A stretch of DNA of 64,000 bases, taken from the NCBI GenBank assembly GCA_046290575.1, contig JBKAGX010000012.1, positions 396 through 64,395 on the forward strand. The letters run 5' to 3'. Positions 4,112 through 10,203 of this stretch are shown piece after piece. Position 1 is the stretch's first letter, and each line of letters opens with the position of its first letter. The notes beneath the pieces are model-generated. The model was given only the letters and a program-made list of their open reading frames with translations. It did not search any database and had not been told where the DNA came from. The position numbers and the translations under genes were made by a program. The DNA comes from Alphaproteobacteria bacterium (GTDB lineage: Bacteria > Pseudomonadota > Alphaproteobacteria > SMXS01).

Positions 4112-4795
4112 TCACAAACCCAACAGCAAATCCTTGGCTTCATTAAGACGGGCTGCGAAATAGGTCGACCCGCCCTGATCCGGATGAAATTTCTTCATCA
4201 GATTCCGATGCGCGGTCTTGATCTCATCGGCGCTGGCGCCAGACCGCACGCCGAGAATTTCCCGCGCCTCCTTGGGCGTCATATGACCACTGTCATAGAC
4301 CGTGTCGCTTGAGGTTTCTTCTTCCCATTCACCAGCAAAGCGGCGCGCCATGTAAGCGTCGAGCAGACGCGCGCCCTCCTGGTCCTCAACCTTGAACAGC
4401 TCATACAAATCGGTCAGCTGCACACGGTCCAGATCACTAAGCCGTTTGCCCGCATAGCCCCCTTCGCGGATCACCCCGTCGATCGCACCGCTGTCATGAT
4501 CGAGCGTCACGCGCAGATATCGGGTCTCGACCTGGGAATTCTGGCCCGCGGACCGCGACGCCCCACCCAGAAACGGAAGAACCCGGCGGGACGCCAGCAG
4601 CACGGCCAACACGGCAAGTATACCCGCAATTGAAAACGCGCCGCGCGACGCGAGGAGTATGGCCGCAGCCGCGATCAAAAACGCCCCAAAATAGCGGGCA
4701 ATCTGACGCACCGACGCCTTGTCGGCCTTCGCCGCCCAGTTCGCCAACAGCAACACACCAATGAGGACGATTGCCCCGATAAACACCCAGACCAC
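4112..4795 (-). CDS. membrane-anchored J-domain (DnaJ-like) protein
   Basis: 227 aa with a GTG start. Hydrophobic N-terminal segments (VWVFIGAIVLIGVLLLA, FGAFLIAAAAILLA, IAGILAVLAVLLA) and a C-terminal J domain with HPD (LMKKFHPDQGG). Confidence 0.8.
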   Translation of the reverse strand: MVWVFIGAIVLIGVLLLANWAAKADKASVRQIARYFGAFLIAAAAILLASRGAFSIAGILAVLAVLLASRRVLPFLGGASRSAGQNSQVETRYLRVTLDHDSGAIDGVIREGGYAGKRLSDLDRVQLTDLYELFKVEDQEGARLLDAYMARRFAGEWEEETSSDTVYDSGHMTPKEAREILGVRSGASADEIKTAHRNLMKKFHPDQGGSTYFAARLNEAKDLLLGL

Positions 4796-5511
4796 TAGCT
4801 TTTTCCGCCCTTCATCATGTTTGCCAGCCTTAATACCTCACCGCCGCGGGCTTTGCCATAATCCACGAGCGCGCGACGGCCGCCGGCAGCAAAAACCGCG
4901 ACAGCGCTGAGCAGATCCTTAAGCTGGTCGGCACTGCCTTCATCAAACCGGCAATAGGCCCCACCCGAAAGCCGCGCGACCTCACGGAACACGCCTTCGG
5001 CATACGGCTCGCGACCCTCCTGAAACATAAAGGCGGGAACGCCGCGAACACCGAGCTGGCCGGCGATGCCGCAGACGCGGTCGACTTCCTCTTCGCAGGC
5101 ATCGCCCACATAGACCAGCGCGCTGACAGGTCCGTCGCGGGCTTCCTTGAGCGTGCGCTTCAACACCCGCTCGATCTGCGTATAACCGCCCTGGCAATAG
5201 ATGCGTGTCATGGCGTTGAGCAGCGGCGGCGATTCCGAATACCACTTGCTGGCCTTGCACTCTCGGTGCCCCCGGAAATAGATCAGCTTGATATCAAGCG
5301 CACCGACTGACGCCGCCTCGCTGAACATATTCGCCTGAATGTGGCAGGCCCGGTCCCAAGTGGGCTGCCGGCTCATGGTCGCGTCCAGCGCGAAGATCAG
5401 CCGACCGCGCGGCTCGGCCTGGCGCCGCACGGGTGCCGCAGCCAGCTTCTCCAGAAATTCATCAACGTCGGCCCGTTGGCTTTCAACGATTTTGGGTGCT
5501 TTATCTGCCAT
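4795..5511 (-). CDS. VWA-domain-like protein
   Basis: Start trimmed to ATG 5511 (MADKAPKIVES...), giving 238 aa. DATMS resembles a MIDAS DxSxS motif. The TAG stop shares one base with the GTG start of the J-domain gene. Confidence 0.6.
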   Translation of the reverse strand: MADKAPKIVESQRADVDEFLEKLAAAPVRRQAEPRGRLIFALDATMSRQPTWDRACHIQANMFSEAASVGALDIKLIYFRGHRECKASKWYSESPPLLNAMTRIYCQGGYTQIERVLKRTLKEARDGPVSALVYVGDACEEEVDRVCGIAGQLGVRGVPAFMFQEGREPYAEGVFREVARLSGGAYCRFDEGSADQLKDLLSAVAVFAAGGRRALVDYGKARGGEVLRLANMMKGGKS

Positions 5512-5532
5512 GCTTCCCGTATCTTGCGCCCC

Positions 5533-6384
5533 ATGTCTGGTCAGACGCAAACCATACGTATGATCGCCGATCTGCGGCGGCAAGTGCAGGACTGGCGCAG
5601 CGCCGGCGACCGGGTCGCCCTGGTGCCGACCATGGGCGCGCTGCATGAGGGGCATCTATCGCTGATGCAGCTTGCGCAGCAGAAGGCTGACCGGCTGGTC
5701 GTCAGCATATTCGTCAACCCGACCCAGTTCGGCCCGAATGAGGATTTTGAGGCCTATCCCCGCGTTGAAGACGACGATATCGAGCACTTGAACAACTTGG
5801 GCGCCGATGTCGCTTTTGCGCCAGCTGTCAATGAGATGTACCCGGCCGGATTCGCCACCGAGGTGCGGGTTACCGGCCTGACCGACGTGCTTTGCGGTGC
5901 GCATCGGCCCGGCCATTTCGACGGGGTTACCCAGATTGTCGCCAAACTGCTGCTGCAATGCCTGCCGGACATCGCGATCTTCGGCGAAAAAGACTACCAG
6001 CAGCTTCAGGTGATCCGCCGCATGACGGCTGATTTGAACATCCCTGTCGATATTCTCGGCGGGCCGATTGTGCGCGAGGCCGATGGTCTCGCGCTGTCGT
6101 CGCGTAACCGCTATCTATCCGAGCACCAGCGCCACATCGCCGCACAGTTCCCCCGTGAGCTGAAAGCCGTGCGCGACCGCGTGCTTGCCGGGGGTGACCC
6201 GATTGCCGCCTGCGACACAGCCAAATTGGCGCTGTCCGCCGCCGGGTTCGATGCGATTGATTATGTCGAGGTCCGTCATACGGATACGCTGGATCTGGCA
6301 GAGCCGAACGCCCGCCCTGCCCGCGTGTTTGGCGCGGCCCGAATCGGCAAAACCCGCCTGATCGACAATTGGGCCGTTGAATAG
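5533..6384 (+). CDS. panC: pantoate--beta-alanine ligase
   Basis: Start at ATG 5533 (MSGQTQTIRMIADLR...), 283 aa, with VPTMGALHEGHLSLM motif. The longer track ORF from 5341 would overlap the divergent gene. Confidence 0.92.
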   Translation: MSGQTQTIRMIADLRRQVQDWRSAGDRVALVPTMGALHEGHLSLMQLAQQKADRLVVSIFVNPTQFGPNEDFEAYPRVEDDDIEHLNNLGADVAFAPAVNEMYPAGFATEVRVTGLTDVLCGAHRPGHFDGVTQIVAKLLLQCLPDIAIFGEKDYQQLQVIRRMTADLNIPVDILGGPIVREADGLALSSRNRYLSEHQRHIAAQFPRELKAVRDRVLAGGDPIAACDTAKLALSAAGFDAIDYVEVRHTDTLDLAEPNARPARVFGAARIGKTRLIDNWAVE

Positions 6385-6397
6385 AAGGAGTGTTGAT

Positions 6398-7432
6398 ATG
6401 CGGATTCACCTGATTGCAGCTGCCGCTCTCCTCGCCGCCGGACTGACGGCGTGCGCCGACACTGCTGAGGACGATCAAAAACCAGCTTCCATCACGGTTG
6501 TCTCCTTCGGCGGCGCGTATCAAGCTGCGCAGCGCGAGGCCTATATGGACCCGTTCGAGGCTGAGACCGGCATCAAGATCGACGAAGAGTCCTATGACGG
6601 CAAATATGATGTGCTGCTCGAGAAAGCCACCGCACCGGTGGGCGGCTGGGATGTTGTCAGCGTCGAATCCGAGCCGGTCATTCACGGCGATGCAGAAGGA
6701 CTGATCCAGCCGATTCCCGCACGGGTGTCTGAAGGCCTGCCACTTGACCCAGCCGCTGTTCGACCGGACGCCATCGGCCACATGCAATTCGCTACGGTTC
6801 TGGCGTTTGTGCCACCAGAAGTCGGACCGATCCCGGAGAGCTGGGCTGACATGTGGGATATGGAGACCTTTCCGGGCCGCCGTGCGCTGCGCAACAATCC
6901 GCGCGGCACGCTGGAGATGGCGCTGCTGGCCGATGGTGTAGACCCGGAAGCGCTTTACCCACTTGATGTTGACCGGGCCCTCGCCAAACTCGACCAGATC
7001 AGGAACCAACTGGTGTTTTGGGAGGACGGCGAACAGCCCGCCAAGCTGATAGCCGATGGCCTGGTGGCGATGACATCGATTTTCAACGGGCGCGCCTGGG
7101 CGGCAACCAATGAGGCGGGCCTCTCCCTCGGCTGGACGATGAATCAGGGCTTGCTTGAGATGGAGTATTGGGTGGTGCCGGCCAATGCCCCCAACCCGGA
7201 AGCCGCGTTCGACTTCATCCGGTTCAGCCTGACAACGCCGCGGCAGACAGCCTTCGGCAACGCGATTCCCTACCGTCCGACCAACCTGGATGCGCGCAAG
7301 TATGTTTCACAGGCAACCGGTGAGGCCGAACCCAGCGCTGATCTGAGCATCTCCCTCAACGCCGAATGGTGGGCGGAAAACGAGGCCGCTGTGCAGGCCC
7401 GCTGGGACGCATGGGTGATGGCCACGCCTTAG
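6398..7432 (+). CDS. ABC-transporter periplasmic substrate-binding lipoprotein (PotD/PotF-like); no partner permease or ATPase genes nearby
   Basis: ATG 6398 is preceded by GAAGGAG. Lipobox-type signal MRIHLIAAAALLAAGLTAC. Composition typical of family-1 solute-binding proteins. Confidence 0.75.
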   Translation: MRIHLIAAAALLAAGLTACADTAEDDQKPASITVVSFGGAYQAAQREAYMDPFEAETGIKIDEESYDGKYDVLLEKATAPVGGWDVVSVESEPVIHGDAEGLIQPIPARVSEGLPLDPAAVRPDAIGHMQFATVLAFVPPEVGPIPESWADMWDMETFPGRRALRNNPRGTLEMALLADGVDPEALYPLDVDRALAKLDQIRNQLVFWEDGEQPAKLIADGLVAMTSIFNGRAWAATNEAGLSLGWTMNQGLLEMEYWVVPANAPNPEAAFDFIRFSLTTPRQTAFGNAIPYRPTNLDARKYVSQATGEAEPSADLSISLNAEWWAENEAAVQARWDAWVMATP

Positions 7433-7445
7433 ACGTTACGGATTT

Positions 7446-7478
7446 CCCTCTCCCCTGAGGGGAGAGGGTTAGGTTGAG
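7446..7478. repeat. REP-like palindromic hairpin, copy A (CCCTCTCCCC-TGA-GGGGAGAGGG plus TTAGGTTGAG tail)
   Basis: Perfect 10-bp stem with a 3-nt loop, read directly. Related copies lie at 7818-7854 and 7935-7970. Confidence 0.85.
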
Positions 7479-7487
7479 CGGCAAAAA

Positions 7488-7859
7488 ATGTCAGTGGAAA
7501 GAGCCCGCAACCTTCGACGGAACCAAACCGACGCCGAGAAACGGCTTTGGTGCTTCTTGCGCAATCGCCAACTGGCGGGCTTCAAATTCAACCGGCAAGT
7601 GCCTGTCGGTCCGTATGTCGCTGATTTCATTTGCAGAACAGAAAAGCTGATTATCGAAATCGACGGCGGTCAACACGCCTTTCAAAAGCAAGCTGATGCG
7701 AAGCGGACCAAATACCTTGCGGCCAAAGGGTATCGGGTCATCAGGTTCTGGAACAATGACGTGCTAAAGAATACCGAGGGCGTCTTGGAGACAATACGGA
7801 GCGAGCTAATGAATAGTCCCCCTCACCCCGACCCTCTCCCCCGAGGGGAGAGGGAGTAG
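7488..7859 (+). CDS. DUF559 / Vsr-like endonuclease-fold domain protein
   Basis: 123 aa: ARNLRRNQTDAEKRLW..FLRNRQLAGFKFNRQ..VGPYVADF.C...KLIIEIDGGQH......D..R...L...GY.V.RFWNNDV. The last ~14 codons (PPHPDPLPRGERE*) are supplied by REP copy B. Confidence 0.8.
   Translation: MSVERARNLRRNQTDAEKRLWCFLRNRQLAGFKFNRQVPVGPYVADFICRTEKLIIEIDGGQHAFQKQADAKRTKYLAAKGYRVIRFWNNDVLKNTEGVLETIRSELMNSPPHPDPLPRGERE
7818..7854. repeat. REP-like palindromic hairpin, copy B (inverted orientation: CCCCTCACC-CCGA-CCCTCTCCCC-CGA-GGGGAGAGGG)
   Basis: Same 10-bp stem as copies A and C, but the GGTGAGGGG-type tail is on the opposite side, as CCCCTCACC. Confidence 0.85.
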
Positions 7860-7867
7860 CCGTACCG

Positions 7868-7915
7868 CGGGCCATGGGAAAAAACCGCCTGATCGACAAT
7901 TGGGCGGTGGAGTAG
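7868..7915 (+). pseudogene. relic duplicate of the panC 3' end
   Basis: CGG GCC ATG GGA AAA AAC CGC CTG ATC GAC AAT TGG GCG GTG GAG TAG encodes RAMGKNRLIDNWAVE*. The true panC end at 6337-6384 encodes ARIGKTRLIDNWAVE*. A 21-nt core is identical at 6354-6374 and 7885-7905. Confidence 0.75.
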
Positions 7916-7934
7916 AGAGAGATACCCGTTAGTC

Positions 7935-7970
7935 CCCTCTCCCCGTTGGGGAGAGGGTTAAGGTGAGGGG
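7935..7970. repeat. REP-like palindromic hairpin, copy C (CCCTCTCCCC-GTT-GGGGAGAGGG plus TTAAGGTGAGGGG tail)
   Basis: Read directly. Same orientation as copy A. Confidence 0.85.
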
Positions 7971-7983
7971 CGTATGAACAACT

Positions 7984-8382
7984 TTGTGCCTCAAGAGCCA
8001 AAGAGGTTTGTCGGTGACAAGATATAAATTTCAGGAGCTATTCAGAGAGGCATTAGAGGAATCCGCGCGGTGGGCTGATCGGAATCTCGGGAAACCAGTT
8101 CCACGGGCATTTGTTGCCGAGGTGCACGGAGCGGGATATGCGGGAACGCGCATGGGAATTGATCAGGCTGCCGAGCTTCTCTACCTCGACGAAAACCGAT
8201 TCTACAAGATCATCGACATCGCGATCATTGCTGTAGCCGAGACAAATTCAGTGGCGTTTGTGCGGGCAAGTGACCATGCACCGGTCCACTTTGAAGAAAC
8301 CTGGAATCCTCAGGGGCTTGGCCCGTTTAAACAGATTGAGTCGTCTACTATCAAAGATGCTCGTATCAAACCTCTAGAGTAG
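7984..8382 (+). CDS. hypothetical protein (no family recognised)
   Basis: 132-aa ORF in a visibly more AT-rich stretch. The start is uncertain; GTG 8014 would give MTRYKFQELF. Confidence 0.45.
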   Translation: MCLKSQRGLSVTRYKFQELFREALEESARWADRNLGKPVPRAFVAEVHGAGYAGTRMGIDQAAELLYLDENRFYKIIDIAIIAVAETNSVAFVRASDHAPVHFEETWNPQGLGPFKQIESSTIKDARIKPLE

Positions 8383-8790
8383 CCCCAAATCCTTCAGCTC
8401 TGCGGCCATGTCGGGCGGCAGGTCGTCGGCATCGCCTTCTTTCAGGTCGGGCGGGGCGTCGGCGGGGTCGAGATAGCGCCAGCCCTGATGCGCGCGGCGG
8501 GGATAGGGCTGGGTCACCACCACCTCGCTATCCAGATAGATGTTGCAATAGCCGCGGCCATTGTCGTCTTCCAGCCGCTCCACCCTCAGCGCCCTCTGTC
8601 GCGCGCGGAACTGCCCGCCGATAATCCAGTAGATCGAGCCGCCATCCAGCAACTCCTCCACGCGCTTGGGCACGTTGCGGGTGGTGATGTAGATCCCGCC
8701 CTGACGTTCTTGGGCGCGCACCGCCATTACCTCTTTCAGATGATCGAGGTCGCTGACGCCGACAGCGGGCCGGGAAATGTGGACGGTCAT
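8374..8790 (-). CDS. DUF1489 family protein
   Basis: 138 aa. LLDGGSIYWIIGG and HQGWRYLDPADAPPDL match my recollection of conserved DUF1489 blocks. Confidence 0.75.
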   Translation of the reverse strand: MTVHISRPAVGVSDLDHLKEVMAVRAQERQGGIYITTRNVPKRVEELLDGGSIYWIIGGQFRARQRALRVERLEDDNGRGYCNIYLDSEVVVTQPYPRRAHQGWRYLDPADAPPDLKEGDADDLPPDMAAELKDLGLL

Positions 8791-8820
8791 ACGCTCCTAT
8801 CCTGGCAACGCGCGCCCATA

Positions 8821-10203
8821 TCAGTCGTTCAGCATCTGGACGTATTTTGCTGCGTTTTCGCCCGCAAGCTTGCCGAAGACCAGGCAGGGGCCATAGGACC
8901 CGCCGCCGCCGACATAGACGTCCCCGTGCAGATTGCCCACCGTTTCGCCCGCGGCATAGAGGCCACGGATCGGCTTTTCGGCCTTGTCGATCACACAGGT
9001 ATCCGCATTGATGCGCAGGCCGGTACCGGTCCAGCAGAGGATGGCGGGCCTGATTTCCACGGCATAAAAAGGCGGGGTTCTGATCGGCGCCATAGGCGCC
9101 TGTTTGAAGAAGGCGGTGTCCTCGCCCGCCTCGACATCGCTGTTGTAGCGCTGGGCGGTCCCTTCCAGGCCCTCCGCATCGATCCCAGCCAGCGCGGCCA
9201 GTTCGGCCAGGGAGTCCGCGCGGAAGATCCGCCCCTCATCGGCCTTTTGCTCAAGCACTTCATTGACCCAATAGGCCTGGAAGAACGGTGTCCGTTTCGC
9301 AGCGGCGCGCGTCGGCTCGTCAAAGATGGCATAGGCGTTCCCGCCCTGTTTGTTCAGCAGGCCGGCGATGACCGTATAGTTGCCGGTTTCGTCACAGAAC
9401 CGGTGACCATCCTGATTCACCATGATGATCCAGCCCGGCAACGCGACTTCGAGATCGCGGCTGAACCCGGGCGTCGCCAGCATCAGCGCGCGGTCATGGC
9501 CATCGACCACGCCGCCGACAGACTGGCCCAGCGTGATCCCGTCGCCCCGGGCACCCTCGGCACCGATATACCAGCCCCAGTCACCCGTCGCCGCTGCCCT
9601 GGGCAGGTATTTCTCGATCATCTCCGGATTGTTGCCGAAGCCGCCGGTCGCCATAATGACCGCACCGCAGGTCGCCTCGTCGTCACCGATTTGGATCCCG
9701 GTCACCCGGCCCTCCTCATTGGTCACGAGCCCGGTCACACGGGCATCGAGAACGAGATCGACGCCCTTGGTGCTGCGGTGTCCTTCCAGCACATTGATGA
9801 CCTCCTGGCCCTCGCCCTCGGGCGGATGGCCACGCGGCGTCGAGCCGACGCCCGATGCATAGAGCTGGTCCGCCGGGTATTTCACCCCCAGCTCCATAAC
9901 CCATTCGAGGGTTGGCGCGGAAAGATCGCAGTAGCGGCGCACCACGGCCGGATCGACCAGATACTGGTTCAGCGTCATGTAGTGCTCGTACATGGCGTCA
10001 GCATTATCGCCGGTCACGCCCGCTTCTTTCTGAACCGACGTGCCTGCGGCGTAGAAATGGCCACCTGACAGCCGCGACGAGCCGCCGACCTGCTTTTCAC
10101 CTTCTACCACCAGGACGGAGGCACCGCTGTCTGCTGCTGCGACCGCAGCGGCTAGGCCAGCCGCACCCGAGCCGATGACAATAACATCATAGTCTCTTTC
10201 CAT
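8821..10203 (-). CDS. FAD-dependent oxidoreductase (fumarate reductase / 3-ketosteroid dehydrogenase flavoprotein-like)
   Basis: 460 aa with N-terminal dinucleotide fold YDVIVIGSGAAGLAAAVAAADSGASVLVVE and C-terminal GLYAAGE motif. Confidence 0.8.
   Translation of the reverse strand: MERDYDVIVIGSGAAGLAAAVAAADSGASVLVVEGEKQVGGSSRLSGGHFYAAGTSVQKEAGVTGDNADAMYEHYMTLNQYLVDPAVVRRYCDLSAPTLEWVMELGVKYPADQLYASGVGSTPRGHPPEGEGQEVINVLEGHRSTKGVDLVLDARVTGLVTNEEGRVTGIQIGDDEATCGAVIMATGGFGNNPEMIEKYLPRAAATGDWGWYIGAEGARGDGITLGQSVGGVVDGHDRALMLATPGFSRDLEVALPGWIIMVNQDGHRFCDETGNYTVIAGLLNKQGGNAYAIFDEPTRAAAKRTPFFQAYWVNEVLEQKADEGRIFRADSLAELAALAGIDAEGLEGTAQRYNSDVEAGEDTAFFKQAPMAPIRTPPFYAVEIRPAILCWTGTGLRINADTCVIDKAEKPIRGLYAAGETVGNLHGDVYVGGGGSYGPCLVFGKLAGENAAKYVQMLND

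Follow-up and report, generated by a model that had tools for sequence, protein, structure and literature searches.

The last 13 codons and the stop codon of panC, the gene for pantoate-beta-alanine ligase, are present twice in a 64,000-nucleotide (nt) stretch of an alphaproteobacterial genome of the lineage SMXS01 (assembly GCA_046290575.1, contig JBKAGX010000012.1, positions 396 to 64,395 of the forward strand; this whole stretch is the window, and positions are given in its numbering). The left copy (6343-6384) completes an intact panC, the right copy (7874-7915) is an untranslated relic, and a 1,489-nt insert between them holds an orphan solute-binding lipoprotein gene and a DUF559 endonuclease-fold gene framed by two hairpins. 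The repeat is unique to these two sites, the insert is absent from relatives, and the same footprint recurs at other genes of this genome. We lean, with slightly better than even confidence, towards a history in which a foreign block entered panC within its last codons, leaving a copy of the tail on either side, and in which the relic is the disconnected former end of the gene.

Duplication of the panC 3' end

An earlier note on this DNA, made from the letters alone, had described a duplicate of the panC 3' end flanking an insert of ~1.5 kb. The sequence confirms it: the coordinates are right, and a 21-nt core, CCGCCTGATCGACAATTGGGC, shows no difference between 6354-6374 and 7885-7905. The end of the gene at 6337-6384 encodes ...ARIGKTRLIDNWAVE and the stop (the C-terminal residues of the gene read ...GAARIGKTRLIDNWAVE), and 7868-7915 encodes RAMGKNRLIDNWAVE and a stop. 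Clear homology of the relic begins at 7874 rather than at 7868; judged by eye, 7862-7873 is alignable only with an indel, and a decayed extension of the relic back to ~7862 is possible. Across the aligned tails 36/42 bases are identical, so that the copies are 14% diverged, and a repeat search of the window returned 6343-6390 / 7874-7921 (48 nt, 83% identity). The final three sense codons differ only synonymously, as the earlier note had said, and two non-synonymous differences lie farther upstream (I/M and T/N, the T being nearly invariant among 31 PanC sequences). Read from its sequence, the relic lacks a ribosome-binding site and lies in a frame other than that of the DUF559 gene.

With up to 3 mismatches allowed, the core matches the two window sites only, and 0/100 shuffles give any match. 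A search of the whole 3.4-Mb assembly found the panC-tail repeat in two copies only; a dispersed repeat without relation to panC, the finding that the earlier note had named as fatal to its own claim, is thereby excluded. In a metagenome scan, a 20-nt core gave one match, which was discarded: an unrelated gene that lies between ruvC and ruvA encodes RLIDNW by chance.

The panC locus in relatives

The nearest named PanC relatives, from Emcibacter and Iodidimonas spp., are 63-65% identical. The only same-genus genome (G001) encodes a PanC that is 86% identical, with 80.4% nucleotide identity across panC. A single panC tail and no binding-protein/DUF559 block is present in G001 and in nine sister-genus genomes. 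In 7/9 of the sister-genus genomes panC meets a convergent DUF1489 gene directly, across a gap of 13-204 nt that contains neither an insert nor a triplex motif, and the remaining two carry one gene for a 731-amino-acid (aa) membrane protein between panC and DUF1489. Because of this adjacency in the sister genus, panC next to DUF1489 is taken as the ancestral state of the family; the hairpins and the variable cargo would have entered the convergent spacer within the genus. In G001 the order is panC stop, 17 nt, a triplex-motif hairpin, a glutathione S-transferase (GST) gene (PF22119), a second hairpin, and DUF1489. No DUF559 gene is present in G001, and the binding-protein gene was not found in the nine family genomes searched, G001 included. 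Since G001 is ~20% diverged and has another gene at this position, it is not a clean empty site. A 16-nt similarity behind its GST gene is not significant as a decayed panC relic, as 8% of shuffles reach its score.

The relic followed by hairpin C, which stands 19 nt beyond its stop, matches the panC stop and hairpin of G001 in arrangement and in hairpin orientation. This supports the relic as the old stop of the gene, and most likely it marks the ancestral panC stop. The earlier note had looked to relatives for a panC that runs directly into a hairpin and DUF1489 and had placed the ancestral stop at the second copy; on both points the comparison agrees with it, DUF1489 following panC without an insert in most of the sister genus and a hairpin following the G001 stop after 17 nt.

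Gene-tail duplicates elsewhere in the genome

The second DUF559 gene of this genome (the only other one) stands on contig C2 in a setting of the same anatomy. Within C2:385619-386201 the order is the tail of a PNPOx-like gene (PF01243), hairpin(+), DUF559, hairpin(-), and an 80-nt relic of the gene tail that is 91% identical; 8/81 sites differ between the two tails, 6 of them at third codon positions. The corresponding site in G001 reads stop, hairpin, the first ~35 nt of the DUF559 gene, and then downstream DNA, which makes it a deletion remnant. When the whole genome was compared with itself for local direct repeats in two copies, four further gene-tail duplicates came to light (Table 1). 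The duplicate at gatB brackets a gene-less cassette, apparently a DUF559 cassette that lost its gene, and those at C1:1099016, C3:271181 and C1:426879 bracket foreign-looking single-gene inserts with no hairpin cassette and no DUF559 gene.

DUF559/hairpin cassettes thus account for 3/6 tail-duplicate cases, although DUF559 genes number 2 of roughly 3,000. The repeats at the six sites measure 41-107 nt and have no common core. As three of the inserts lack the cassette, tail duplication is not bound to it and is a general entry route of single genes into this genome. The earlier note had not noticed this recurrence. A related arrangement was seen at C2:537475-538244, where the 3' part of tRNA-Asn and the adjoining downstream DNA are duplicated (92 nt, 98% identical) around a 587-nt insert with a 155-aa open reading frame (ORF).

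Differences between the paired tails

Each locus offers few differences, and statistical support arises only on pooling the six pairs. The 45 pooled differences fall 9/6/30 at codon positions 1/2/3, with 26 synonymous and 15 non-synonymous codon changes. The panC orthologs of this genome and G001 differ by 37/17/113, with a like share at third positions. A count of 30/45 has P = 5e-6 against a uniform spread and P = 0.002 against a rough 44% expectation for a selected copy paired with a drifting relic. By our own count, the relic-specific changes at panC and C2 show no GC-to-AT bias. This third-position excess, similar to that of orthologs, together with the missing bias, suggests that a related allele supplied the tail with which the insert came in. 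There is moderate support for the view that one tail of each pair evolved in a working gene of another lineage and was brought in by the insert. The earlier note's idea of a diverged allele, or of a cassette with its own replacement terminus, is upheld to that degree by the pooled third-position count, against which the gatB pair stands.

Which tail is native was addressed by comparison with relatives. Compared over 42 nt, any two of the working tail, the relic and the G001 tail differ at the same number of sites (6/6/6). Each tail differs from G001 at 4/39 positions, both are closest to G001 among 18 relatives, and across these 18 the working tail is slightly closer on average than the relic. 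The earlier note had proposed that one copy might prove phylogenetically closer to relatives; the outcome is a tie, and the native copy cannot be named from it. Both tails are spelled CGC CTG ATC GAC AAT TGG, a genus-specific choice of codons, and this spelling and the closeness to G001 imply that any donor was a lineage of the same genus. Agreement with G001 passes from the working copy immediately 5' of the core (GGC AAA ACC) to the relic immediately 3' of it (GCG GTG). The switch is a hint of a crossover inside the core, with 2/6 informative sites not fitting.

The insert and its neighbours

As the earlier note had listed, the insert holds a solute-binding lipoprotein gene, a DUF559 gene and hairpins, the latter being two modules, with a third behind the relic (Table 1). 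The binding-protein gene starts 13 nt past the panC stop with an AAGGAG ribosome-binding site ahead of it. Its nearest homologs are 52-57% identical and belong to complete ABC-transporter operons. A tblastn search with the permease and methyltransferase genes of these homologs gave no match in the 97.8%-complete genome, which also has no cognate ATPase partner and no paralog. With neither transporter partner nor paralog, the gene is a true orphan. The nearest homologs always stand in operons of the order methyltransferase-ATPase-binding protein-permease-permease.

The DUF559 domain is full-length (profile positions 5-108 of 109; score far above the gathering cut-off of 20.6 bits). The protein also matches the DUF559-domain model PRK09767 of NCBIfam (114.7 bits) and the structure PDB 3HRL (E = 1e-26), and its last 13 codons pass through hairpin module B. 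Codon usage of both DUF559 genes of the genome, and of the neighbouring orf132, lies below the 1st percentile for this genome. The comparison of composition that the earlier note had proposed for the insert thus finds the DUF559 gene atypical, but not the binding-protein gene, which is host-like (GC content at third codon positions, GC3, 0.71; 44th percentile of a genome-based codon index). That gene has host-like codon usage despite its absence in 9 relatives.

Among the ORFs of 4500-9500 no integrase, transposase or recombinase is found in or beside the insert, in which SBP_bac_8 and DUF559 are the only domains. The insert has no methyltransferase gene; its Vsr-like nuclease-fold gene is solitary. 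A scan of 5000-9000 returned no Rfam family and no sigma-70 promoter-like site, and its only two terminator-like sites (5474 and 8826) both lie outside the insert. Behind hairpin B there is no relic of the binding-protein gene's own tail, scores being at null level.

Behind hairpin C, orf132 has no Pfam or NCBIfam family match, and relatives have no homolog of it at this site. Its GC3 is 0.52, its codon usage falls at the 0th percentile, and its end overlaps the stop of DUF1489 by 9 nt. It sits where G001 has the GST gene between two hairpins, which makes the panC/DUF1489 spacer a hot spot for variable cargo, and orf132 is probably further cargo acquired there.

Table 1. Positions of the panC locus features in the window and of related sites on other contigs of the genome.
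Feature	Position	Strand	Description
panC	5533..6384	+	pantoate-beta-alanine ligase, 283 aa, intact; PF02569, 340.8 bits, full length
Working panC tail	6343..6384	+	left copy of the direct repeat, IGKTRLIDNWAVE and stop
Binding-protein gene	6398..7432	+	orphan PotD-like solute-binding lipoprotein; PF13416 SBP_bac_8, 112 bits; weak PotD match
Hairpin module A	7446..7481	+	CCCTCTCCCC-TGA-GGGGAGAGGG-TTA-GGTTGAGCGG; third block toward the DUF559 gene
DUF559 gene	7488..7859	+	YcjD-type, Vsr-like endonuclease fold, 123 aa; PF04480, 149.5 bits
Hairpin module B	7819..7854	-	reverse complement CCCTCTCCCC-TCG-GGGGAGAGGG-TCG-GGGTGAGGGG; inverted relative to A and C
Relic panC tail	7874..7915	+	right copy of the direct repeat, MGKNRLIDNWAVE and stop; untranslated
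Hairpin module C	7935..7970	+	orientation as A
orf132	7984..8382	+	orphan ORF
DUF1489 gene	8374..8790	-	convergent to panC; PF07370, 152 bits
Second DUF559 gene	C2:385771-386109		64% identical to the window copy
gatB tail duplicate	C11:22821 / 23036 (C11:22821-23076)		41 nt, 90%; brackets a 175-nt hairpin(+)...hairpin(-) cassette
Tail duplicate	C1:1099016 / 1099883 (C1:1099016-1099989)		107 nt, 92%; brackets an S-adenosylmethionine (SAM)-methyltransferase gene
Tail duplicate	C3:271181 / 271774 (C3:271181-271844)		71 nt, 90%; brackets a 135-aa membrane ORF
Tail duplicate	C1:426879 / 428464 (C1:426879-428517)		54 nt, 89%; brackets a 506-aa ORF

Hairpin modules

The three modules share one build, in which a GC-rich stem of 10 bp precedes a third block that is rich in G, in the layout CCCTCTCCCC-N3-GGGGAGAGGG-N3/4-GGGTGAGGGG. 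Modules A and B, mutually inverted, frame the DUF559 gene. The hairpin part of the modules alone was folded, giving -12 kcal/mol (z = -3.5) for the 10-bp stem of A and -11.8 kcal/mol for B; triplex formation is putative. The genome contains 16 motif copies. No relic is detectable at hairpin C or at the ten triplex motifs that stand alone outside the panC locus, with scores at null level.

To our knowledge, the record of BoxC and triplex repeats goes back to the 1990s, with no explanation yet of where they come from or what they do. The intrastrand-triplex motif BoxC/PIT/TMECO has the same three-block layout as modules A, B and C (Holder et al. 2015, PMC4666352). B and C fit its published consensus, CCCTCNCCC N3-6 GGGNGAGGG N3 GGGNGAGGG; the departures are two mismatches in the third block of A and a 4-nt second loop in C. 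In that work the motif was linked to variable gene content at its loci, and no tie to mobile elements was found (PMC4666352). DUF559 goes unmentioned there, whereas in our case the C-rich repeats stand inverted at both ends of DUF559 genes.

DUF559 cassettes in other alphaproteobacteria

DUF559 homologs occur in 37/151 alphaproteobacterial genomes, sampled at one per family. An inverted-repeat test, which replaced an over-strict regular-expression count of triplex motifs around DUF559 genes, found C-rich or triplex-type repeats of at least 18 nt inverted at both gene ends in 31/42 loci. In one locus (L106) the start of carB is repeated beyond the insert as a 35-nt, 100% identical copy. Seven loci (L106, L113, L115, L129-L131, L136), which represent at least five families, have the cassette at the carA|carB junction, right where carB begins, and in both orientations, a recurrence that hints at a site preference. 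Upstream of flhA, a 23-nt perfect intergenic direct repeat (L140, 2384-2406 / 2930-2952; ~45 nt with diverged flanks) brackets hairpin-DUF559-hairpin, a long target duplication without a gene terminus. In a further locus (L114, G149:C18, 736-2055) the cassette stands with its hairpins in frame inside recO and splits RecO_C; the 439-codon frame encodes RecO_N, the first part of RecO_C, a hairpin-encoded linker, DUF559, another linker, and the rest of RecO_C.

The metF/metH junction carries a DUF559 cassette in two different organisms (L139 and the P0174 contig). Several small DUF559 proteins were also found under the names of neighbour genes (lysyl-tRNA synthetase, primosomal protein N', adenine methyltransferase), and one of them has an SDHAF2-like (PF03937) domain joined to it. 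These cases suggest that cassettes often fuse with host gene tails by read-through. Among 25 papers that mention DUF559 none describes such cassettes, judged by titles and abstracts.

Origin of the duplicated tail

The history that we favour runs as follows. The 1,489-nt block of orphan binding-protein gene and hairpin-framed DUF559 gene would have entered the last codons of panC. The left tail copy would then keep panC whole, with the new genes directly behind it, and the right copy with hairpin C would be the old stop region, now unused. Since the differences between the tails look allelic, the most likely route is entry by pairing with the resident tail, the incoming DNA having brought along a panC tail of its own that came from a related lineage of the same genus. 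Pairing may have led to a single crossover of a circularised fragment or to break repair copied from a cassette-bearing allele, and the 21-nt identical core would be the likely point of exchange. The DUF559 nuclease may have had a part in this, for example by making the break.

Several observations weigh against this history. The tails themselves carry no clear native or foreign signal, with 3 unique sites each in the working tail, the relic and G001. The third-position excess weakens to P ~0.03-0.04, by our own estimate, if decay prefers G/C sites, and the gatB pair goes the opposite way, with 1 synonymous and 4 non-synonymous changes. The C2 cassette seems older than the species split, and its tails differ at 8/81 sites within the genome as compared with 17/81 between orthologs; an old cassette with so few tail differences requires gene conversion or re-insertion. 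Most DUF559 cassettes of other alphaproteobacteria lie in intergenic spacers and have no duplicate. In the standard cassette the working tail abuts hairpin(+), and at panC the binding-protein gene intervenes; as this gene left no separate footprint, the history may comprise at least two events. No donor was found, the best match to the binding-protein gene being 36% in 185k species genomes and 57% in 5.8 billion proteins, and in the same searches no genome has panC beside that gene. Evidence of recent mobility, in the form of a close relative of the window DUF559, was likewise not found (nearest homolog 68% identical).

A long target duplication made in place is an account that we regard as a serious if clearly less probable contender. 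The panC tail would have been broken, by a staggered or double cut that the incoming nuclease may have made, and filled in around the insert, so that both tails are native and were at first identical, the working copy later changing synonymously under selection while the relic drifted. The site pattern is indeed symmetric (3 relic-, 3 working-tail- and 3 G001-unique), both tails are genus-typical, and both share a derived first-base A and a TAG stop against G001. Some duplicates that flank cassettes are 100% identical (35 nt of the carB head in L106, 23 nt in L140), and restriction-modification genes are read in this way in PMC2853133. What decides against it for us is the character of the differences. 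A drifting relic should change at all codon positions and toward A/T, and the pooled differences (30/45) are as third-position-biased as those of orthologs; besides, duplications of 40-110 nt have no established biochemical mechanism.

It is improbable that the relic is instead the imported copy, a scrap of a former host's panC tail that the cassette carried behind hairpin B and set down just past the native stop, leaving a wholly native working tail. The N of the relic at a position where PanC has a nearly invariant T, and the degenerate 5' part of the relic, would suit such a scrap; in all three cassette cases the relic directly abuts hairpin(-), and the working tail equals G001 at two sites 5' of the core. 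The 3' side of the core argues the other way, as there the relic equals G001 at GCG GTG and is followed by a hairpin as in G001. Moreover, the binding-protein gene and not a hairpin follows the working stop, and the overall distance to G001 is tied.

The identical core between diverged arms recalls the classical attL/attR picture, and a tRNA-Asn 3'-end duplicate of that kind exists elsewhere in the genome, so the locus might be the remnant of an integrase island targeted to the panC 3' end, with the core as att crossover and the integrase since deleted. This is very unlikely, given that the 1.5-kb insert and its borders hold no integrase or recombinase and that the footprint appears at five other sites with repeats of 41-107 nt and no shared core; the reading was rejected for want of its defining recombinase gene. 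Chance similarity, or membership in a dispersed repeat unrelated to panC, has only the short length of the repeat in its favour and is refuted by the shuffle test and the whole-assembly search, and the two copies in 3.4 Mb moreover share reading frame, stop codon and genus-specific codon spelling.

Discussion

Insertion with long target duplication is reported in Nobusato et al. 2000 (Gene 259:99). A later survey describes it for restriction-modification genes and for lone nucleases, with a lone mcrA-type case listed; the repeats, from 46 to more than 400 bp long, often span start or stop codons while the target gene stays intact, and double-strand breakage is suggested as a common cause (Furuta, Abe & Kobayashi 2010, NAR 38:2428, PMC2853133). 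The panC case is an instance of this published phenomenon at a gene terminus. As there, a unique direct repeat of >30 bp (here 42-48 nt, in two copies) flanks a short insert with a nuclease-type gene and no transposase or integrase, and the repeat spans the stop codon of an intact gene and varies in length from site to site (here 41-107 nt). The panC insert is not itself a restriction-modification unit. It has no methyltransferase, its nuclease is a solitary YcjD/DUF559 protein within triplex-motif hairpins, and an unrelated orphan binding-protein gene accompanies it; its repeat copies are 14% diverged with coding-type differences, and no closely related empty-site strain is at hand.

A second precedent comes from fungal mitochondria, where mobile ORFs (mORFs) consist of an endonuclease gene and a foreign C-terminus inserted into a gene, the native C-terminus being left as a relic; hybrids of this type are atp6 of Allomyces macrogynus and atp6, atp9, cox2 and nad3 of Glomus (PMC3630166). 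At panC, too, an endonuclease ORF lies in the last part of a housekeeping gene, between a completing C-terminus and a relic, and C2:385619-386201 has the same layout. The bacterial nuclease differs in having a Vsr-like PD-(D/E)xK fold rather than LAGLIDADG or GIY-YIG, and its gene is out of frame with the host gene. The native relic of the fungal genes is clearly closer to relatives than the inserted tail is, whereas here the two tie, and cleavage and mobility are putative in the panC case. The panC case is set apart from both precedents by its nuclease family (YcjD/DUF559), the frame of triplex-motif hairpins, the orphan cargo gene, and the lack of a clear native-versus-foreign signal.

Two further systems are less alike. 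Repetitive extragenic palindromic (REP) elements and their associated tyrosine transposases (RAYTs), the REPtrons, also comprise a small gene between inverted palindromic repeats, single copies of which lie elsewhere in the genome, but the bracketed gene here is DUF559, not an IS200/IS605-type Y1 transposase, and there are only 16 motif copies. We know of no REP/RAYT system that leaves long gene-tail duplications, and this reading was rejected because the Y1 transposase gene is absent. Integrase islands at the 3' ends of genes and tRNA genes likewise have a duplicated gene end with an identical core and restore gene function, but no recombinase gene is present at panC, and the six sites share no core.

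It is possible, though to us rather doubtful, that the hairpin-framed DUF559 cassettes are widespread, unpublished homing-type selfish elements that are aimed at conserved terminus codons and survive by supplying or duplicating the terminus. Candidate targets would be the panC RLIDNW tail, the carB MPKRTDI head, recO, and the metF/metH and carA/carB junctions. If so, BoxC/PIT/triplex repeats would be cassette ends and gene-less remnants, and the orphan binding-protein gene would show that cassettes can carry or attract cargo.

Whatever the route, panC is a well-documented case of the uptake of single foreign genes in the last codons of an essential-pathway gene, which came through unharmed because its tail is present twice. 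The route was used repeatedly in one genome, at six sites, half of them tied to a small nuclease gene in BoxC/triplex-motif hairpins. If the nuclease drives insertion, the BoxC/triplex repeats would be explained and bacteria would gain a new class of homing-like elements. For annotation, relics mark former gene ends and can date insertions, and short 'conserved' intergenic pieces can be dead gene tails.

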